Below, in pieces: positions 34,694-46,722 of a DNA stretch of 64,000 nucleotides. Origin of the DNA: Naegleria gruberi (taxonomy: Eukaryota). The stretch lies in assembly GCA_000004985.1 (NCBI GenBank), contig GG738913.1. One strand, 5' to 3'. The position numbers and the translations under genes are program-made. Under the pieces are notes generated by a model that did not search any database, had not been told where the DNA came from, and saw only the letters and a list, made by a program, of their open reading frames with translations. Within the stretch, counting starts at the first letter, position 1, and each line of letters begins with the position of its first letter.

Positions 34694-37600
34694 TTATTTG
34701 AATAAGCGAACTAGTTGATAGATTATGAAAATAACCAACATAGCATGGAGAAGGAAATGCACAATCATTGATTTGCTTATCAATGATGACTGCTTTCGTT
34801 CTACAGATTCGAATTGGACGTGTAAAATTCTCATACTTGAAGCCATCAATCCAGCAAATGGAATCCAACTTGGTGCCATGAATGGATATCTTTCTTTCAC
34901 GCCACCAATTTGTTGTCTTTCCTCCATTTGGTATTGCTCTGAAACTAGCTTTGCCTTTCTGTGAAGGGAATGCACAAATGGTTCAGCATCGACAACAAAG
35001 GATTTGAATGGACCTCCCTTATTGAGAGATTTCACAGAGCTTGGTGTGAAGAAATACGGAGCAAAGCCTGACATTTCAAAAAGAATATTACTACCTGGTA
35101 GTTTCTTTTCCAACATTTCGAATATTTGAACAAGTTGTGACTTTTCAAAGTAGAGGAATAGACCTTCTGCAATTACCAAAACTGGAATTGACTCACCAAA
35201 TGATTTTCTTATGAAAGCAAGATCTGAAAATGTTGATTCTTCTAGAATAGATCCACTTTTACATTCGTATAGTGGTTGTTTCGTATTGTCATTATTGTTA
35301 ACAATATTAAAAACTTGTCTTCTCAATTCAATGACATTTGGCAAATCAATATCAATCCAATGCACCTTCTCATTCATTCCAAATAATCTTTCATATCTAG
35401 AACACAATCCACATCCCAAATTAACAATCATTACCTTTTCATGCTTAGCCAAACTCTTACTCACAAATTCTTGTGATTTCCTATCCAAGACAATAGTTCT
35501 CCCAACAATATTAGTTCTGGTAATTCTATCATTCTGAACATCAACAGAGAGATCTTCTGGTAAGTTTTGGAAGATTTTCACAGCAATTGGATCATATAAA
35601 ATTCCATCGCTTTCAAGAGATTCGAGAGCTCTGGAAACGAGTGGAATGTAGAGAGTTCTTTCGAGAGGTGTGAGGACAGAGTTCTTATCTTGAGCAATGT
35701 CTACGTCAAAAGGAGTTGGATTATGTGATGATTGTTGTGGAGAGCCAAGAATGGAATGTGAAATAAGATTCGAATAATGTTTGTCAAGTTGATGTCCACA
35801 ATTCTTAACAGTAATAATATTCAATCCATTTCCTGCAAACTTATTCCAGTTGTTAATTGTATTTCCTGTTACTAATTTATCAAATTCGCCTCTGAGAGCA
35901 ATAACTGGACAGTCAACTTGGTATTTTCCAAAAATGTCATCGTCATAACAATGATATTTCAATAAAAAGTCAAATTGGTGTTTGAAAAGTGGAATTTCCA
36001 TCAAATCTCTAATCTTCTTTGCCTTTTCATCCAAGTTCTCAATTCCTTCTGTTACATTAGGGAACAAGTCAAGATCGACAATTCCATAAATGATCGATTG
36101 ATCTCCCAAAGTTTTAAATTTCACATAAGAATCACCATGAAGCGAATTTCCAGGAGCATTTCCACTAACAATCAATTTTACAGGTTTCTTATTGAACTTG
36201 AATTGAATAAATCTTGTAAATTCAAGAGCAACCAAAGCACCCATGCTGTGTCCATAGATTGTAACCGTATTGGAATTAAATAGTTGATGGACACAATCCC
36301 AAACTTGCATGAAATGAGCAGTCCAATCAGAATTATTTCTCAAATAATCCAAATTAATCACATAAATGGAAAATTCTTCAAGATTTAAATCTCTAAAATC
36401 ATGAACTGTTCCACCAAGTGCTGGAAAACAGAGTAAAACATTCTCTGATGATCTTTCTTGGATAGTTTCTAATAACAAGTGCTTTTCTAATGAATTGGTT
36501 TGATTTGGACTATTAGATTGTTGTGTTAATTGTTGATTGGATGATTTTCCAGAATTGGAAATCATTTCAACAAGAGTAGAAACCGAAACTCCAGATAAGA
36601 GAGTCGAAACTGTAATACTTGATGAAAATTCTCTTGATAGAATATTTCTTATTTCTACACTCATGAGAGAATCAAGACCATAGTCAACAAGTGGTTTCTC
36701 CAGTTGAATTTCACTTTCGTCCATTCCAAAAACTTTGGATACAATATCTGAAACCTTTCTAACAATTCCATCAACGTTAGAATCTGTAGTTGTTGATTTT
36801 CCTTCAATATTTGATTCCTTTCTTTGACGACCAAATGTTACATGAGGTGAAAGTGAATCCTCAGGCATTTCAAATCCAAAGAAGGTCATTGCAGGAGGAA
36901 GATCCATCTCGTGTTCAATCAAATATTCGAAATGATCAAGTAAATCATGAACATGCATAGCTCCAACCCAGAAATATTCATCAACTTCTGCCTTAGTTGC
37001 ATATCCAGCTCCTGTAATCAAACTTAGACCTAAAGATTGTCCAGCCAATCCACAACTTCTTCTATAGCTACACAAAGATTCTAAGAAATAATTTCCACTA
37101 TTATAGTTTGATTGACCGAATGCTCCAACCAAAGAACTGAAAGAGCTCAACATTAAAAAAGTGGATAGATTGCAATTGAGCTTGATTGAACATTGGTGAA
37201 GGTTGAAACCTCCGAGAATCTTTGGTCTGGCAACAGTTTCGTACTTTTCTTTTGTCATCTTATTTGCAGCACAATCGGATAAAACCATTGCTGAATGGAC
37301 AATTCCTGTAATTGGGAATTTTTGATGGATTTCTTGCATTGTTTGATAAAGAGTTGAGTAATTGCAAATATCAGTAATGTAAACATCAATAGATGCATTA
37401 GGGTTATTCAGCATAATCTTGTCAATGATCAATTTTTCAGATTTGTTTGGCATTCTTCTTGTAAGAAGGGCAATGTTTGAGACTTTCATCTTTTCAACAA
37501 GCCATTCGCACATCTTTAATCCAATTCCACCCAATCCTCCACTAATAACCCAACAACCGTTATTCAATATCTTCTTTTGAGATGTCAAAGAATTATAAAT

Positions 37601-40600
37601 AACATTGGAATAAAAGTGAACAAATCTTCCACTTTCAGAATAAACAATTTCATCATGAGTATAAACAGATTCAAGGACATCATCAACAATTTCACCAATT
37701 GAGTTTTCTGAACATTTAGGTTGCATATCAATAACCTTTAACTTCTTTTGGAATATCTCAGTTTGAATTGATCTCAAACATCCAACAATAGAAGATTGAG
37801 AAATGTTACATTCCTGATTGTAACCAAAAACTGAACTAGTTAGAGCAACGAATTTACATCTGCCAGTATTGAACTTGAGTATCTTACAAATTGAGTACAT
37901 AGATTCCACACAATTGGAAACTGTTTCAAACTCGAAAGAGCTTAAAGAAAGTGGCCAACCGAAAATAATTCCACAGATATTCAAAGTTTGATTGAATATT
38001 GATTCGAAATGTTCAAAATCTGCAGGATTAATAACGAATCCAGAATCAAGTTGTTGGAATTTTTCACCTTGAATAATTTTGACAACTTTTACACCTCTAG
38101 ATTTCAATTCTTCACACAATAAATTTTCCTTTTGTGTTTCAGAAGAGAAGAACAACCATCTCTCAACATTTTTCTCTTTCTTCTTTGCTATAATGTAATT
38201 TGCAGTACCAATTGGCAACATGACATTTGAAGGGAAATCACAATCCAATAAAACTTGTTCCCACTCATTTCCTGATAGCAAAGCAGATTGCTTTCTGAAG
38301 GAATCCTTAAAATACCACCATCCCTTCAAAGTACCAACGAAAAAGTGTAAAAATTGAGCTCCAAGAGGATCAGACTCAACTAGGACTAATTGACCATTGG
38401 AAACCAACAAGCTTGAAATGAGTGAAAAGACGGATTTCAAATCTTGAGTAGCATGAACAACATTAGCAGCGATTACCAAATCAAACGAATCCTTTTCAAT
38501 GAATTCTGAAGAAACAAATGGCTTTTCAATATCTAATAAAGAAAATTCCATAAAATATTCGAATTGTGCAAACTTTTCCTTTGCCTTCACCAAAAACAAT
38601 GGTGAAATGTCTGTGAAAACATACTTCACATCTATATAATCTCTCAATGAATCAAGAATTGGTAAAATTTGTTTGGTTGTTCCTCCAAGTCCAGCTCCAA
38701 TTTCCAAAATTCTCAAAGTCTTCTTTTTACCATTCTTTGGAATGGAGTTCAAAATAAAATCAAACAATGGTTTAGTTTGATGAGAAACTTCATCATAATA
38801 ATCATTCAATACATGTTCTTTTCTTGAAAATAGGACAGAAACAGGATCTGCCTCACCAGTTAATAATTGCTTCATGTGAATTAAACTATTTTCCACCAAA
38901 TCGATCAGATTGGAATAAAGATCAATTCTTGGAAATTCTCTCAAGGATTTGATAATATTAAATCTATTAGGAAGATCACTAACTACTGTATAAGTATCTG
39001 AATCATATTGGACAAGATTCATTTGTAAAGCCAACTCAATAGTCAATTGAGCAAGTCTCTTCAAATGTTCTGGTTGAATCCTAGAATTCAAAACAGAAAG
39101 CTCGATAGTAGAACTTTCACATAACTCTTGGAATACATTCAAACAATATTCAACACAAACCTTGGTAACAAATCTATTAAGAGATTCGTGTTCGTTTGAG
39201 TATTCATTGAGTTTGAAATTGAGAATAAACTCTTGCAATGATTCCATAGAAGGAAGAATAGATTTAGAATAGATTGGTTGTGGTGCAAAGTTTGATGATA
39301 CAATAGAAGTTTCTTGAAGTTTCTTTTCTTTGGTTTCCAAAGGTGAAACTTTGAAACCATTGAAAGAAATAAATGGCTCATTAGATTCTCCCAAAACTTG
39401 TAAATCACAAGTAATTTCTTTTGTTTGAGCATTCTTCGAATATTTAACACATCTGGTGATGGTGTGTTTCGAATTGTTTGGTTTTCTATGTGGGATGATT
39501 GTAATTTCGTCTGTGGAAATTGGAAGATAGGTTGTATCCTCTGGCATTGAACAAATCATCATTTGGAAACATGAATCAAGCAATGCAGGATGCCATGTAC
39601 AATATCTTTCGTCATTTTCCAAAGCTTTTGGATGGGAAATTTGTGCCATCAAAACTTCTCTTGTTTCGTCATGTCCAACTTGGCTGTACAAATCCAATCC
39701 TTGGAAACAAGGTCCATAATTGAGGCCACATTTGGACAGATTGAAATAGATATTCTCCTTATGAATGTTTTGTGTTTTTTCATCAAGATTTTCTGTGAAA
39801 TTTCTGAAAATATCAAAGGCTTTCAATTCTCTGTTTGTGAAATTGATGGAATCACCAGAATTAGAAGAATCTAGAGTTTTGAAAGAACCAAAGGCATGTA
39901 AAGTCCAATCACAAGGTAGCTTATTTGATAACTTGGAAGGATCTTTGGAAATTTCTGAATAATTAATAGATAACAAGTCAACCTTCTTTTTGCTGAAAAT
40001 TCTAAACTCATTAGCATACAAATTCAAATGAACTTGAACAATTCTAGGCTCTTGTTGTAAAATCATTGGATTTACCACTTTGAAATTGACTAGACGAAGC
40101 TCTTCAACATTCTTGGACGAGTTATCAAGAATTGCTGCAGAACTAATCTCAACGAAACCAGAATATGGGAAGAATACTTCATTTTCAATCTTGTGATCTC
40201 TAATATACATTTGATCAGTGTTAGAACTAATATCAATAAGACTCTCATAGATAATATCTGGAGAATTTTCCATTGGATTGAATTTTCTGTTACCCAAAAG
40301 TGGATGATTAATAGTTTCGAATTGACCAATTCTCCATCTCAAAGATTCATAAGATTCTGACCAACAAGATTGTTTCTGGAAAGGATATTTAGGAATTCCA
40401 TCCAATATCTTACTATTCTCTCCATATCTATTAATTTGTTTCCAATCAAGTTTAGAATATCCATTCACAAACAATGAGGAGACAACTTGTAACAAACTCA
40501 TTTGTTCATCCTTCTTTCTAATCAATGTTGGAATTACAGAAATAGAATCTTCATTTCCTAATGAAGAAGACGAAATATCCTTAATGTATCCATTCAAAAC

Positions 40601-43184
40601 CGGATGGGAAGATATTTCAATAACATATTTGATTGAGTTTTTGTAAGTGTGAAAAATCTCTTCCATAGCTTGTGAAAACAAAACCTTCCCTCTGACATTA
40701 TTCCACCAATATTCTGGTGTTGACATTTCTTGGAGGTTTGACTTTCTTCCAGTGACAGTAGAGAAAACGGCTTGAATATTATCATTTGGTTTGGTTCCTC
40801 TTTCCTTTTTTGAGATTCTATTAGAAAGAACTTCTAATAACTCTTTCTTGATTACTTCCATATGGCTGGTATGGAATGCAGCTTCATTTCTCAAAAAGAC
40901 ACAGTTGACTCTTGAGTTTGGTTCATTTTCCACATACTTGGTGAGATCAAGTTGCAATTGTTTCAACACATGTTCTTCACCACCAACTACAACGGAGGAA
41001 TTACTATTTACAGATGCAATCTCAACAGTATTGTTAAATCCAAGAATATCCAAAATTGAGGCCAATTTGTCCAATCCTAAATTGATAGCCATCATTTTAC
41101 CTGTTTTAGAAAATTCTTTCAAGATGGTTGCACATTTGTTTTGCAATCTTGCTCTATGATAAATCAAGAATACAGCTTCCTCTAGAGTGAGGCATCCATG
41201 CACGTATGCAGCTGTCACTTCTCCAACTGAATGTCCAACAACAATTCGAGGAGTGACTCCATATGATTTCAATACTTCATAACAACCACATTGTACTGCA
41301 AAGATACATGGTTGAGCAATGTTGGTTGAGTAAATTCTGGTGTCCTTTTCTGTTCTTGTAGTCAACTCTTCTACAATTGACCACTTGTCATTGGTTGGCA
41401 TTATCTTTTGCATTTCTGAATCAATTCTTTCAACTGTGGCAGAGAAAACATTGTTGGTTTCCAATAATTGTCTTCCCATAGCAAACCATTGAGGTCCTTG
41501 TCCAGAGAAAACAAAGCAAATATCGGATTTTTCTTCTCTCTTGCTTGAGTTACCAATGCTAGTTGATTCATTAGATGAAAAATTGGAGGACAATTGGAGG
41601 AGCTTTTCAACGAGCTCATCTTTGTTGTTGTAAATGATAGAAGCTCTGTAGTCTCTGAATTGACTCTTCTTTTCACAATAGTTGAAAAGTAAATCATCTT
41701 GATTGCATTGAGCTGAAAACTCAGCAACGCTACTAGACATCATCTTGAGTGAGTATTCACTCTTGGCAGAAAGTGGAAGAATTCTAATACCTTCTGATAT
41801 GCTATTCTTTCTTTGATGTTCTAATTGCTCAACACTTTGCAAGATGCAATGAGCATTAGTACCACCCATACCAAAGGAATTAATTCCAATAATAACAGGA
41901 TTGATATTAGAAGGGATTTCTTCTTCTTGCATGACAACTCTAATTTGTTTCTTCTCAAACTCAATGTGAGGATTGAGTGTGCTCTCAGTGCAATGAATAC
42001 TCTTAGCTATCTTCCTATGTTTCATCATGAGAATAGCTTTGATAATACTTGCAATCCCACTTGTTGCCTCTGTGTGACCAATATTACTCTTGACAGAACC
42101 AATTGGTAACTTGTCAAGTTTGTGCTTTCTTCTTTCTCTTCCAAAGAATGAATCAAGAGCTTGAGTTTCAATCTTATCTCCAATAGTAGTTCCAGTTCCA
42201 TGACTTTCAACATAATAAACATGTTGTGGAGGAATGCCACTCTTGTTGTACACTTGTTCCAATAATTCAACTTGTCCTTCCAGAGAGGGCATTGTTATTC
42301 CACTCTTTCTTTCTCCATCGTGATTGACCCAAGTTGACATGATCAAAGCATGAACTCTTTCATGTTGTGAAGAATTCGCATGCTTGTATGTGTTGATGAT
42401 GAGATGATGAATCTAATTTCTTCAAAATTAATACAGCAACACCTTCAGATTTTCCATAACCATCAACATGTGAAGAGAAGGTTTTACATCTTCCATCTGG
42501 TGCTGCTGCTCCAATAAGCTTTTGAGATACAAATTCTTGTGGAATGTAGTTTAAATTAACTCCAGCAACAATGGCCATTTCGCATTCATCTCTCTGTAAA
42601 CTTTCACATGCACAATTGAGTGCTACCAAACTTCCTGAACACATGGTATCGAGAGTGAATGACGGGCCTCTCAAATCGAAATGATACGAAATCCTGGCAG
42701 AATTGTTAGCTGGTGAAGAGTTTATCAAACTGTACGAGTTGTAAGTTTGCATGTCATGCCAGCCTTTCATGGTGAGATAATCTTGGTTCATCACAGAACA
42801 AAACACACCAATGTTTCTTCCTCTGATTTCTTCCCATTTAATTCCAGCATCCTCCAAGGCAATGTAAACTTGTTGAAGAAGGAGACGATGTTGTGGATCC
42901 ATGGAGCATGCTTCCTTCTTGGAAATTTCAAAGAATTCAAAATCAAACTCATCTAATGGTTTCTCCAAGAAGTGAGCCCTGTTGTAGGTTTGCTTATTGT
43001 TGTGGAATCTTGATGATTGTCTTTCCTTTGGTATGGTTGAGCTGGTGTCACTACCGTCAAGAAGAACTTGCCAGAATGATTCAACATCCACTGCCTGTCC
43101 AGGGAACATACAACTCATTCCAATGATGCCCATTGGTGAGTTTTCAGCAGAGTTTGATGGAGTAGTAGAATTGATAGAAATCAT
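34694..43184 (-). CDS. iterative type I polyketide synthase, KS-AT-DH-cMT-KR-ACP-TE-(TcmP/LCM-type O-methyltransferase)-TM; KS domain frameshifted at ~42363..42390 (two ORFs 42360..43184 and 34694..42346)
   Basis: ATG at 43182-43184 (MISINS...IIGMSCMFPG). KS motifs TMCSGSLVAL, HGTGT and GGTNAH. AT GHSVGE. DH HPLLGNRKF. cMT LEIGAGLGGTT. KR GGLGGIGL. ACP GLDSLMSVE. TE GHSMGALVALEF. LCM/TcmP-family VNLGCGLCSRYERL. C-terminal helix IVHFLLHAMLVIFIIYQLV. No ER domain. Confidence 0.9.
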
Positions 43185-43536
43185 TTTCTTAATTACAAAG
43201 GTATAGAGTGTTGGTCTTTTTTCTTATAAATTAAAAAACAATAATCAAACACCAAACCATTTTAAATCATGAGTGGTCATTAGCAATTTGGAATCAGCAA
43301 TAACAACAATAATTCATTATTGTCTCATACTGCTAGATAAGTCACAAGAACTTGTTACTTTCCTTTTTAAATCTGCCGCTCTCAGCCAAGTCACAAGTTC
43401 AGCCATTATGAACTAGTTTTTTTCAATGGAGTAGTTCAACTAAGAGATTCAGAAGAGTTCGCATCACTGATACTGAAGTGTTTGTTAGTATAAAAGCTTC
43501 GGGAATCACTGATTGTGATAATACAATTCAATTGTG

Positions 43537-43573
43537 GGAGTTCGGATGTTGATGTTCTTGAGATACGAACTCC
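43537..43573. promoter_or_regulatory. perfect 8-bp inverted repeat (GGAGTTCG...CGAACTCC) with 21-nt loop in the PKS / oxidoreductase intergenic region
   Basis: Seen directly in the sequence. It lies between divergently oriented genes, and aagtcacaag direct repeats lie nearby (43331..43400). Confidence 0.3.
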
Positions 43574-43705
43574 TTGTGATGAAAAAGTGTTGATGATACT
43601 AATCACCCCGGTTCCAATAACAAGTTCTGAATGAGAGTCTGGTCAGTGATACGAGCCCTTTTTATTGGCATCTTGATATGGATTGGATAACATTAAAAAA
43701 TTATC

Positions 43706-45380
43706 ATGATTATCTACATACTTGTGGCTATTCCATTTCTGTTTCTTCTCTATGTTGGCTATCTATTGTGCAAGTTGTATGTATTCAACAGATATCCAAA
43801 GAATGTTTTTCTGGCGCCGCACTATCTAACAGAGAATGTTGTCCAAACCAAAAAGTTCAACAAGAATCCTTTCAAGAAAGAAAAACTTGCAGAGCATTAT
43901 GATGCAATCATTATTGGCTCAGGTGTTAGTGGCATTATTTGGGCAAGATGATAGGTCCAGAAAGTGAGCTGATGGATCTTCTCTGTGATAGAAAATTGAG
44001 ATGTTGTCCCTTGATGAGAACTTTGATAATCTGTCCATTATTAATTCTGCTACAAATGAAAAGTTGTTAGAAATAGAAATTCCTGAAGGTCAAGACAAGT
44101 TAATCAAAAAGCTCAAAGAAGTCTTTCCAGAAGAATCCAAAGCCATTGATGAGTATGTTGAGATATCGTTTCCACCAAAGTATGAAATTATTCCAGTTAT
44201 TATTTTAAAGTGTTTCCCATTCATATTTTCCAAATTATTCAAGTATCTAGTTGCACCAAAATTTATGAATTATGTCCATACTAGTATTGGTCAAGCTCTT
44301 GACAAATTGACGTCCAATCAGCTTCTTAAGAGTGCCATTTGCTATATTGGCATAGATTATGGTTCAAATCCAAAAGCAACTCCACTCTATGAGCATTCAA
44401 TGATTCACAATATTTTCAAGAATGGTGGTCACATTCCAAAGGAAGGAGCAGACGATATTGTCGAAAGTTTGATAAAGGTCATTAGAAAAGGAGGTGGAGA
44501 TGTGATGAGCAAGGCAAATGTTGCTTCAATCCACATCAATAAGGAAGGAAAATGTGGAGGAGTGTGCGTGTTAAAGAACAAGGACTCTATCATTATTGAA
44601 TCTCCGATTGTAATTTCATCTGCTGGAGTTTACAATACTTATTCAAAGCTCATTCCTCGTCCAATAAGAGAAAAACTTGGCTACAATCACTTCAAGTACA
44701 CGCCTTCATATTCTGTTCAGGCAACCTTCCTTGGCTATGATGGCACAATAGAAGAATTAGGATTAAAGTTCCAAAACTATTTCATCATGACTAACCCTGA
44801 TTTTGATGGTCAATTTACCAGATACATGGAAAGTGATGGAGATATTGACCCAAAGAATGGCATTGATATTCCAATCTTGATAGCCAATCTCAGACCTTAT
44901 AATAACAAGGTTTCAATGACTATCCTCAGCTTTGCCAATCATGCATGGTTTCAAGAGTGGAACCATCAACGAGTTGGACAACGTAGTGTTGACTATGAAG
45001 ACTTGAAGGAGAGAATTGCCAATCGAGCCCTCGAATTATTATACATGAAACATCCACAACTTGAAAATAGACACTCTGTAATGAGTACTTCCTCACCAAT
45101 TACATTTAATCATTATCTATCCAATAATTTTGGAGATTACATGGGTTTTAAGAGAGTGGTTGGTAATGATGATGGTGTATTCCGTTGGGGAAGGCCAATG
45201 TCCAATCTGGAGAATTTGTTTTTGGTTGGGCAGGATATCTTTGCAGGAGGTGTGCAGGGAGCAATGTTGAGTGCTTTAATTACATGTGGATGCGTGTTGA
45301 GGAGGAATTTGTTTGATGACTTGGCAAAGGCCGTTGAAGAGATGAAGAAGTGGAAGGCTTTGCTATTTTGTTTTAAATAA
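43706..45380 (+). CDS. RetSat/CrtISO-like FAD-dependent oxidoreductase (phytoene-desaturase family), apparently internally deleted (ORFs 43706..43951 and 44001..45380)
   Basis: N-terminus: TM helix plus NPFKKEKLAEHYDAIIIGSGVSG (FAD GxGxxG), collinear with RetSat residues ~1-80. The second ORF is collinear with RetSat residues ~150-end (LKSAICYIGIDYGSNPKATPLYEHSMIHNIFKNGGHIPKEGADDIV... and C-terminal LFLVGQDIFAGGVQGAMLSALITCGCVLRRNLFDDL). The ~70 residues expected between them (rest of the beta-alpha-beta FAD fold) have no coding space (only 49 nt). Confidence 0.65.
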
Positions 45381-46045
45381 CTTTTATTAATTATTTTTTT
45401 TAATTGGGAATCATATTCAAAACTATTCTTACGAGGTCTTCCTCTTGGTCGTTTAGGAAGACTCTTCTTTAATTCTTGTTCTTCCTTCATGGACTCTATT
45501 GTTGATATGAAGAATGTATTATTGTTACCTTTGGTACTTATGACGGTGTTGTTATTATTGGTATTTACAGGGGTGGTAGAAGAGGAGCTGCTAGTGGAGT
45601 AAGCAAGGATCGTCCTATGATTGTTATTATTATTAATATTTACAAATGATGATAAAGATTTTGGGGTTTGTTGCTTGCATTCTTCCATGATAGCAACATT
45701 GTTATTATTAGGAACAACATAATTATTGGATAAATTCAGTGGCTGATTCAATAGTGCCTTGTTTAGATGGTGATTGTTCATTGGCCAATTGTTGTTATCT
45801 TCATCATATGATGGAAGGAAGGAATCATCCACTGTGGGAGCATAATTCTCATGGTAAGGATTATTATTGGAGCTACTTAAAAGCAGATACAACAAGAATA
45901 GTGTCTGCTCGTTTGTGATATTGAAAGGTGAATGGTTTGGAAGCATTTGTTTTGTTACTGGTACCATAACTAATAACACATTATAATAGCCATTTACTAT
46001 GGTATGTGAACCCTGCATTCCTACTCTTCTGGAAATATATCTCAT
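45137..46045 (-). CDS. single-AT-hook protein, family member 3 (3' end uncertain: ORF runs antisense into the 3' end of the neighbouring gene)
   Basis: ATG at 46043-46045. TLFLLYLLL motif. STIESMKEEQELKKSLPKRPRGRPRKNSF at ~45428..45510. The other two family members terminate 23-27 codons after PRK, so the true stop or an intron probably lies near 45380-45420. Confidence 0.5.
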   Translation of the reverse strand: MRYISRRVGMQGSHTIVNGYYNVLLVMVPVTKQMLPNHSPFNITNEQTLFLLYLLLSSSNNNPYHENYAPTVDDSFLPSYDEDNNNWPMNNHHLNKALLNQPLNLSNNYVVPNNNNVAIMEECKQQTPKSLSSFVNINNNNNHRTILAYSTSSSSSTTPVNTNNNNTVISTKGNNNTFFISTIESMKEEQELKKSLPKRPRGRPRKNSFEYDSQLKKIINKSYLKQNSKAFHFFISSTAFAKSSNKFLLNTHPHVIKALNIAPCTPPAKISCPTKNKFSRLDIGLPQRNTPSSLPTTLLKPM

Positions 46046-46151
46046 CCATTTTTAGAATATCTCTAACCGCTCAAAATAGCAATAGGTAACATATATGGCA
46101 ACAGCCAGATCACATTAATAATTCATGGCTAATACCATTCAAAAAGATTTA

Positions 46152-46496
46152 TTAGGGAGGAGAGGATTCATCCTCCTTGAAATCATGTTCCTTAAAATTC
46201 ATGGTTTGTATTAATGAAATATGATCTATGTCGCAAAACCTTTCATATTCTCGGTATAGGGCCAGGGAAATAACATTAGGAACGGTTTTTTGGTTTAATG
46301 ATGAGTATTCGTTAGAGAAATCCTCTAGATTTTCAAAGCTATAGCCCTCTTGAGCCACATCAGACAGTTTCTGATAGATGGCTCTTTCTGATGCGATTTT
46401 AAACATTTTTTTCTTTGGTGTTTGTGTGATATCTCTACAACCATTCTGTTCAAGAATACGAAGTGAAACACTAATGTGTAGTTTTCTAAAATCCAT
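46152..46496 (-). CDS. hypothetical small protein (114 aa)
   Basis: ATG at 46494-46496. Non-repetitive sequence with no family recognised. Confidence 0.4.
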   Translation of the reverse strand: MDFRKLHISVSLRILEQNGCRDITQTPKKKMFKIASERAIYQKLSDVAQEGYSFENLEDFSNEYSSLNQKTVPNVISLALYREYERFCDIDHISLIQTMNFKEHDFKEDESSPP

Positions 46497-46722
46497 AACT
46501 AGAATTTCTAATAAGTATTACCAAGTTTTTGTTTAGGAATGGTATCACCAATAGACAAATGCAAAACTTCATCTTTCATCCTTTGTAACGAATAGATAGT
46601 AGCGGTTAATTATCATTATTCATATCCAATCTCCCTCTATTCGAAATTGAAGTATGAAGTCACACTTTTCGATTCTTTGACTGATGTAAATTGAAAATTT
46701 ATAATTCGTGGTTCAACAACAT

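Follow-up and report, generated by a model that had tools for sequence, protein, structure and literature searches.

Vertebrate RetSat, the all-trans-retinol 13,14-reductase, and the CrtISO of plants and cyanobacteria have the same layout, in which an N-terminal hydrophobic segment is followed by a Rossmann fold with the signature GxGxxG...E...GG and by a CrtI-type substrate domain. The acidic residue that ends the second β-strand (β2) of dinucleotide-binding folds binds ribose. In fungi, LovC, a trans-acting enoyl reductase, reportedly partners LovB, a highly reducing polyketide synthase (PKS) that has no enoyl reductase (ER) domain, and in Bacillus subtilis 168 a frameshift in sfp is said to be a strain-specific knockout of a secondary-metabolite gene. 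Here we analysed 64 kb of the genome of Naegleria gruberi NEG-M (the window; G+C about 34% throughout), in which a gene for a RetSat/CrtISO-like oxidoreductase dependent on flavin adenine dinucleotide (FAD), at 43706..45380, lies head to head with a gene for a type I PKS. It was found that in the reference sequence both genes are broken by small deletions and that these deletions are absent from a close relative. On balance we read the lesions as genuine and very recent.

The oxidoreductase gene is split over three frames

The open reading frame (ORF) 44001..45380 is 100% identical to the N. gruberi protein XP_002670622 / NAEGRDRAFT_81787, which is 459 amino acids (aa) long and annotated as 'predicted protein'. 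It was compared with the orthologues of N. fowleri (P0002, 626 aa) and N. lovaniensis (P0003, 614 aa), both of which are 54% identical to it, and with a metagenome contig of 7554 nt, here called L002 (k127_311790, ENA ERZ929261, run ERR1078381, PRJEB11402). The oxidoreductase of L002, P0138 (588 aa), is the second member of the 90% cluster of the annotated protein, and L003, an independent Logan assembly of the same run, carries the genes too. The identity of L002 to the window is 98.0% over 38003..43932 and 99.5% over 43932..45401 and, judged from this, its source is the same species as N. gruberi or a very close one. The public metagenome (contigs L002, L005 and L008, 2-7.5 kb long) contains a Naegleria with 0.3-1% DNA divergence from NEG-M; no paper describing the sample PRJEB11402 was found in a literature search. 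Read against L002 and the orthologues, the gene in the window consists of the following parts.

43706..43932, + strand: 5' remnant in frame +2, with the hydrophobic N-terminal anchor, the conserved KFNKNPFKKEKL motif, the first β-strand (β1) and GSGVSG (GxGxxG)
43931..43933, + strand: junction of a 136-nt deletion (L002 5913-6048 absent), placement ambiguous by one G; shifts the frame
43933..43989, + strand: middle remnant in frame +1, HYLGKMIGPESELMDLLCD, collinear with the orthologues; DNA identical to L002
43989..43991, + strand: 1-nt deletion of one A (GATAAGAAA in L002, GATAGAAA here); interrupts a Lys codon, after which the frame changes from +1 to +3
43992..45380, + strand: 3' remnant in frame +3, which covers substrate binding and the C-terminal part of FAD binding; the annotation starts at ATG 44001

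Thus, two lesions 57 nt apart divide the gene over three frames (+2, +1 and +3). In L002 the same gene is a single open frame of 594 codons from the ATG equivalent to 43706, and because the same DNA is uninterrupted in a contig that is about 99% identical, the interruption is more than a chance arrangement of ORFs. When the N. fowleri protein was searched against the window by tblastn, three collinear matches in three frames were obtained: residues 5-105 matched 43709-43936 in frame +2, residues 152-178 matched 43933-44013 in frame +1 (beginning HYLGKMIGPESELMDLLCD), and residues 173-611 matched 43995-45323 in frame +3 (E 4e-167). Residues 106-151 had no credible match anywhere in the 64-kb window at E <= 10. 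A first-pass annotation, made from the letters of the window, had described an ORF at 43706..43951 that encodes a transmembrane helix and ends in IIWAR*, and translation bore this out (MIIYILVAIPF...YDAIIIGSGVSGIIWAR, starting with MIIYILVAIPFLFLLYVGYLLCKLYVF and ending with KFNKNPFKKEKLAEHYDAIIIGSGVSGIIWAR): the frame of the 5' remnant runs on across the junction to a TGA stop at 43949-43951, so that the native ATG yields 81 residues. It also held rightly that 44001..45380 is collinear with homologues to the C-terminus, which it is from about residue 173 of the N. fowleri protein. The loss, which it had put at about 70 codons, is 136 nt relative to L002, which amounts to 45 codons and 1 nt. 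The spacing of 49 nt that it gave between the two ORFs is correct, but this interval is not non-coding, as 43933..43989 encodes HYLGKMIGPESELMDLLCD in the third frame, and the second lesion, the 1-nt frameshift at 43989/43990, had gone unnoticed in a description of two ORFs across one gap. The lost segment had been identified as β2 and the ribose-binding part of the fold. β2, its Glu and the GG motif are indeed gone, but HYLG, the equivalent of DTGIHYIG, and the next 17 residues remain in another frame.

The possibility that an intron supplies the missing segment was rejected, as it had been in the first-pass annotation, for the orthologues are single-exon genes, L002 has the 136 nt in place and in the window this DNA is simply absent. 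Excision of the deleted block as a cryptic intron was rejected as well, since the block starts with GT and does not end with AG. In the intact allele the 7-nt repeat TGGTTTG occurs at both ends of the lost segment, 132 nt apart. Collapse or slippage through this repeat would remove 132 nt and leave an in-frame VSGLHY, whereas the observed junction is TGG|CAT and lacks 4 more nt. Inspection of the intact allele revealed no long repeat at the junction of the 136-nt deletion. It had also been proposed that orthologues which naturally lack the segment would change the picture; N. fowleri, N. lovaniensis and L002 all retain it.

At the other end of the gene there is a 1-nt indel at window position 45352 (L002 7470) which alters the last residues only, the tail being ...EEMKKWKALLFCFK in the window and ...EEMKK in L002. 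In N. fowleri and N. lovaniensis the C-terminal tail of the oxidoreductase shows no conservation. On the - strand, an Asn-rich ORF of 302 aa (45137..46045) extends over the final 244 nt of the oxidoreductase ORF, and its true 3' end probably differs, because the gene is shorter or has an intron.

A core part of the FAD-binding fold is deleted

In the intact proteins the Pfam domain NAD_binding_8 spans IIGSG...HYM (residues 89-145 of P0003). The deleted residues correspond to P0003 97-142 and make up 46 of the 57 residues of the NAD_binding_8 match in this N. lovaniensis orthologue. The AlphaFold model of P0003, which has a mean predicted local distance difference test score (pLDDT) of 85.3, consists in its N-terminal part of a helix (2-30), β1 (87-90), αA (94-105), β2 (110-113) and a β-hairpin (124-129 and 135-140), and the helix 2-30 is the predicted membrane anchor. 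With the deletion go most of αA, all of β2, an invariant Glu, the GG motif and the β-hairpin. The invariant columns lost, in an alignment of 20 homologues, are V110, E114, G120, G121, H124 and G141 (P0003 numbering), and E114 is presumably the acidic residue that binds ribose. No Pfam match to a Rossmann domain was obtained in either window ORF, where β1 and GSGVSG are all that is left of the fold, whereas the intact P0138, P0003 and P0002 match PF13450 at E 2e-12 to 1e-10. Of the three marks of the FAD fold in CrtI/CrtISO/RetSat-type enzymes (GxGxxG, the β2 acidic residue and GG), the window ORFs do not encode the complete set. The 3' ORF does encode the CrtI-type substrate domain and the C-terminal FAD-binding segment: it matches positions 93-489 of the 504 of crtI_fam (E 3e-16) and positions 96-480 of the 493 of carot_isom, and it has kept the conserved GQD...G..G tail. 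Translation from ATG 44001 would give a product without anchor and β1, and αA, β2, Glu and GG are not encoded at all. As the elements that hold the ADP-ribose of FAD are thus not encoded, this product could not be a flavoenzyme.

The gene probably belongs to a PKS-linked clade of the CrtI/CrtISO/RetSat superfamily

By its sequence the gene codes for an FAD-dependent oxidoreductase that is conserved in Naegleria, has a membrane anchor and falls in the CrtI/CrtISO/RetSat superfamily, an assignment that is made at superfamily level only. The best NCBIfam models were carot_isom (TIGR02730, equivalog) and crtI_fam (TIGR02734, subfamily), but the intact P0138 scored below the curated cut-offs of both, with 88 against 587 bits for carot_isom and 82 against 238 bits for crtI_fam. 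A Foldseek search with the P0003 model returned 4rep as the best match (E 2.5e-23, TMt 0.79), followed by 3ka7 and 4dgk, which indicates a CrtI-like fold; this result holds for the orthologue only. The full-length identity to animal (vertebrate) RetSat is 29-31%. A second Naegleria paralogue (P0004 and P0005; in N. gruberi P0021, XP_002674608) is nearer to animal RetSat, with 33-39% identity, and it is intact in N. gruberi, outside the window. The copy studied here would therefore be a member of a separate, PKS-linked paralogue clade and not the RetSat-like 'housekeeping' one. A literature search for papers linking Naegleria with retinol saturase found none. The gene model of P0021 is 1118 aa long and also holds a complete calreticulin domain (631-994), and it is probably two genes merged.

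The neighbouring PKS gene is broken near the shared 5' region

The PKS gene is divergent from the oxidoreductase gene and is read in the window as two ORFs, 42360..43184 and 34694..42346.

34694..43184, - strand: type I PKS, KS-AT-DH-cMT-KR-ACP-TE-LCM methyltransferase; no ER domain
42372..42377, - strand: PKS frameshift, two nucleotides (AT) missing between 42375 and 42374; GAAATTTC in L002, GAATTC here
43185..43705, no strand: shared 5' intergenic region; relative to L002 it has a 37-nt indel (43478-43514), a 1-nt indel (43582) and 4 substitutions

The disruption of the PKS that had been reported beside the oxidoreductase is real, and it is a 2-nt frameshift in the KS domain. It falls between the two halves of this domain, with the N-terminal half (PF00109) in the upstream ORF and the C-terminal half (PF02801) in the downstream ORF. 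The first 1734 PKS codons of L002 are an uninterrupted open frame that reads straight across the site. An intron was tried as an explanation of the break and rejected, since there is no GT in the shifted interval and hence no GT..AG is possible. The N. lovaniensis PKS does have an 81-nt intron in the KS domain, at EAHQ|TGT, but that is another site and the intron is absent in N. gruberi. The PKS further differs from L002 by two in-frame indels, one of 3 nt (42393) and one of 15 nt (38599), and by scattered substitutions. The 2-nt loss creates an EcoRI site, GAATTC, which is probably a coincidence and is of note if a cloning artefact is suspected. In the intergenic region, the 37-nt stretch 43478..43514 that is absent from L002 is flanked by the short repeats ATCACTGAT and TGAAGTG/TGATTGTG and looks like an ordinary slippage polymorphism in the promoter region. 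A search of 42000..46500 against Rfam gave no match.

Both genes are intact and in the same head-to-head orientation in N. lovaniensis (PKS of 2882 aa and oxidoreductase of 614 aa) and in N. fowleri (2907 aa and 626 aa), and L002 has them head to head as well. By tblastx, the N. lovaniensis locus shares only these two genes with the window, and the flanking genes of the N. lovaniensis and N. fowleri loci are absent from the window. The adjacency is thus kept while the flanks change and, judged from these gene orders, the PKS and the oxidoreductase are conserved as a unit. Because the adjacency is conserved and the PKS has no ER domain, we infer that the flavoenzyme acts on the PKS product, and the arrangement suggests that it reduces or isomerises double bonds of that product. 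In the literature the PKSs of Naegleria have only been counted (PMC9928731).

The reading frames are constrained outside the lesions

Between the window and L002 the PKS has 35 synonymous and 21 nonsynonymous differences (synonymous differences per site, pS, 0.033; ratio of nonsynonymous to synonymous differences per site, pN/pS, 0.15), and the oxidoreductase has 5 synonymous and 0 nonsynonymous differences. Of the 63 alignment columns that are invariant in ten other homologues of the oxidoreductase, 53 are unchanged in the N. gruberi sequence and 1 is altered, and the other 9 fall in the deletion. Outside the deletion this is 53 of 54 invariant columns kept, and in the intact proteins the number of changes ranges from 0 to 4. 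No nonsense codon was found in the five open pieces, which total 10.2 kb. As the expected number of nonsense mutations is 543 × d, the lesions would be younger than d of about 0.0055, that is, about 0.55% neutral divergence. The lesions that disrupt the frame of the oxidoreductase are those expected of a pseudogene (the 136-nt and 1-nt deletions and the premature stop at 43949), and relaxed constraint, in the form of a pN/pS near 1 and accumulated stops, was not found. The constraint outside the lesions therefore leaves a very young pseudogene or a reference artefact only. The term 'decaying locus', which had been applied to this region, is too strong for a pN/pS of 0.15, for 0 nonsynonymous against 5 synonymous differences and for 10.2 kb that have no stop outside three frame-breaking deletions.

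Genuine lesions or an error in the reference

We consider it probable, with a good measure of doubt, that this is a very recent, lineage-specific double inactivation and that the lesions are genuine in the sequenced strain, in at least one haplotype. The oxidoreductase would then have been knocked out by the 136-nt and 1-nt deletions and the PKS by the 2-nt deletion in its KS domain, and the deletions of both genes would cluster near the shared 5' region. Translation from the native ATG would end after 81 residues that contain the anchor, β1 and GxGxxG, and the intact enzyme would normally have acted on double bonds of the polyketide of the neighbouring PKS. Several observations weigh against this double inactivation. 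The three frame-breaking lesions fall in 1.1 kb of the 10.2 kb of concatenated coding sequence (p ~0.03), and they are paired with other indels (2 nt with 3 nt, 19 nt apart; 136 nt with 1 nt, 57 nt apart). Clones of poor quality or single coverage would account for such a pattern as well as one error-prone repair event near the shared promoter would. The lesions were read from the reference assembly, and an error of cloning, sequencing or assembly may lie behind them. Naegleria has been described as a heterozygous diploid (PMC9928731), and NEG-M may have an intact second allele. Three other window genes covered by the same metagenome (contigs L005 and L008) count in its favour, as their 3.9 kb of ORF are free of indels and differ by synonymous changes alone, but these control contigs were retrieved by exact protein identity, which biases them towards no difference, and 4 lesions in 6.9 kb against 0 in the 3.9 kb of the control is not significant alone (p ~0.17). 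Finally, the link between the enzyme and the PKS product comes from the conserved adjacency and the missing ER domain only. The NEG-M allele was also looked for elsewhere: exact-protein look-ups of the 459-aa and 81-aa ORFs returned no contig, a protein search with the N-terminal 201 aa gave distant matches only, and scans of JGI metagenomes for another N. gruberi-like copy, with a DNA pattern and with P0138, returned nothing.

The rival that has to be taken most seriously, unlikely though we think it, is that the NEG-M genome is intact and that the 136-nt, 1-nt and 2-nt deletions arose from cloning in E. coli, from base-calling in low-coverage Sanger reads or from assembly. All the lesions are deletions that gather in a 1.6-kb stretch about the shared 5' region, two of them each take a single base out of a short run of A or T, and both ORFs are otherwise perfectly conserved under strong purifying selection, as is expected of an error in a functional gene; moreover, a scan that looks for oddities will preferentially pick up the rare bad spots of an assembly. 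Yet the sole published N. gruberi genome is a Sanger assembly of strain NEG-M (PMC9928731, Table 1) with zero N in the window, and 3.9 kb of other ORFs show no indel against their counterparts in the metagenomic relative. Base-calling errors do not take the form of a clean 136-nt deletion, and the sequence would have to be very poor locally to contain four independent errors in 1.6 kb. The first-pass annotation had offered a pseudogene or an assembly collapse as the causes of an internally deleted protein, of which the internal deletion of a RetSat/CrtISO-like gene stands, but collapse is unsupported, as there is no long repeat at the junction to cause it. It is very improbable that the 459-aa product from ATG 44001 is functional, in a new role that is FAD-independent or trans-complemented, and that the 81-aa ORF encodes a small membrane protein of its own. 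The 1380-nt ORF is uninterrupted, is the annotated gene model and shows 0 nonsynonymous differences from L002, but this conservation is equally explained by recency, the product would be without the anchor, β1, GxGxxG, the β2 Glu and the GG motif, which are invariant in each of the 19 homologues that were aligned, the partner PKS is likewise broken, and the closest relative (L002, P0138) has the complete gene. Rescue by splicing deserves even less credence. By inspection of the sequence, a GT..AG interval at 43925..43991 (67 nt, GTTAGT...GATAG) would join ...IIGSG in frame to KIEMLSL... and skip both lesions, but the product would then be short of 67 residues of the Rossmann fold, half of GxGxxG among them, which is an even greater loss, neither the orthologues nor L002 have an intron at that site, the intact allele uses the GT and the AG simply as parts of codons, and splicing would not mend the PKS, whose shifted interval has no GT.

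If the double inactivation is accepted, a further step, which we regard as doubtful, is that both genes were knocked out together in the NEG-M lineage by a burst of clustered deletions around the shared promoter. Candidate causes of such a burst would be error-prone repair of one break and transcription-associated mutagenesis, and in axenic culture the strain would have done as well or better once the polyketide pathway was lost. Elsewhere in the window, 2660..2978 (319 nt), between two genes whose proteins are 100% identical in the metagenomic relative, stands in place of an unrelated 174 nt in L005 (1711..1884), which is a local intergenic replacement or insertion.

Consequences for the use of the reference strain

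The reference annotation at this locus, the 459-aa NAEGRDRAFT_81787 and a split PKS, represents fragments of broken genes, and pangenome or orthology work with NEG-M will therefore mis-score the oxidoreductase and the PKS. That an ER-less PKS and a RetSat/CrtISO-like flavoenzyme cooperate is modestly supported by their adjacency in three species and by the fact that both carry lesions in NEG-M, and wild N. gruberi, not NEG-M, is the material in which to seek the product. If a joint knockout did occur in the NEG-M lineage, nature would have supplied a double knockout in the reference strain, and with wild isolates one could identify the first polyketide from Naegleria and find out what the RetSat-like enzyme does in polyketide tailoring. 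The Naegleria in the metagenome (L002, L005 and L008) could serve as a wild-type comparator for further NEG-M genes. The finding is ordinary in kind, as a young pseudogene pair and a reference error are both common.

Comparison with known systems

The layout that the intact gene shares with RetSat and CrtISO is not kept by the copy in the window, which, unlike these enzymes, is frameshifted and without 45 codons of the FAD fold. As with sfp in B. subtilis 168, small lesions break the frame of biosynthetic genes that are intact in all other respects, in a reference strain long kept in culture whose close wild relatives are intact. Unlike sfp, two adjacent genes and three lesions are concerned, and they are known here from the reference sequence alone, so that an origin in culture is not implied. 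Like LovB with LovC, an ER-less reducing type I PKS stands beside a separate enzyme whose family members saturate or isomerise C=C bonds, and the adjacency is kept across species, so that by analogy a comparable partnership may exist in Naegleria. The two partners would differ in kind, since an enzyme of the LovC type is NADPH-dependent and has the MDR fold, whereas the Naegleria enzyme is predicted to be a membrane-anchored FAD enzyme with the CrtI fold, and the analogy is drawn from the genes alone.

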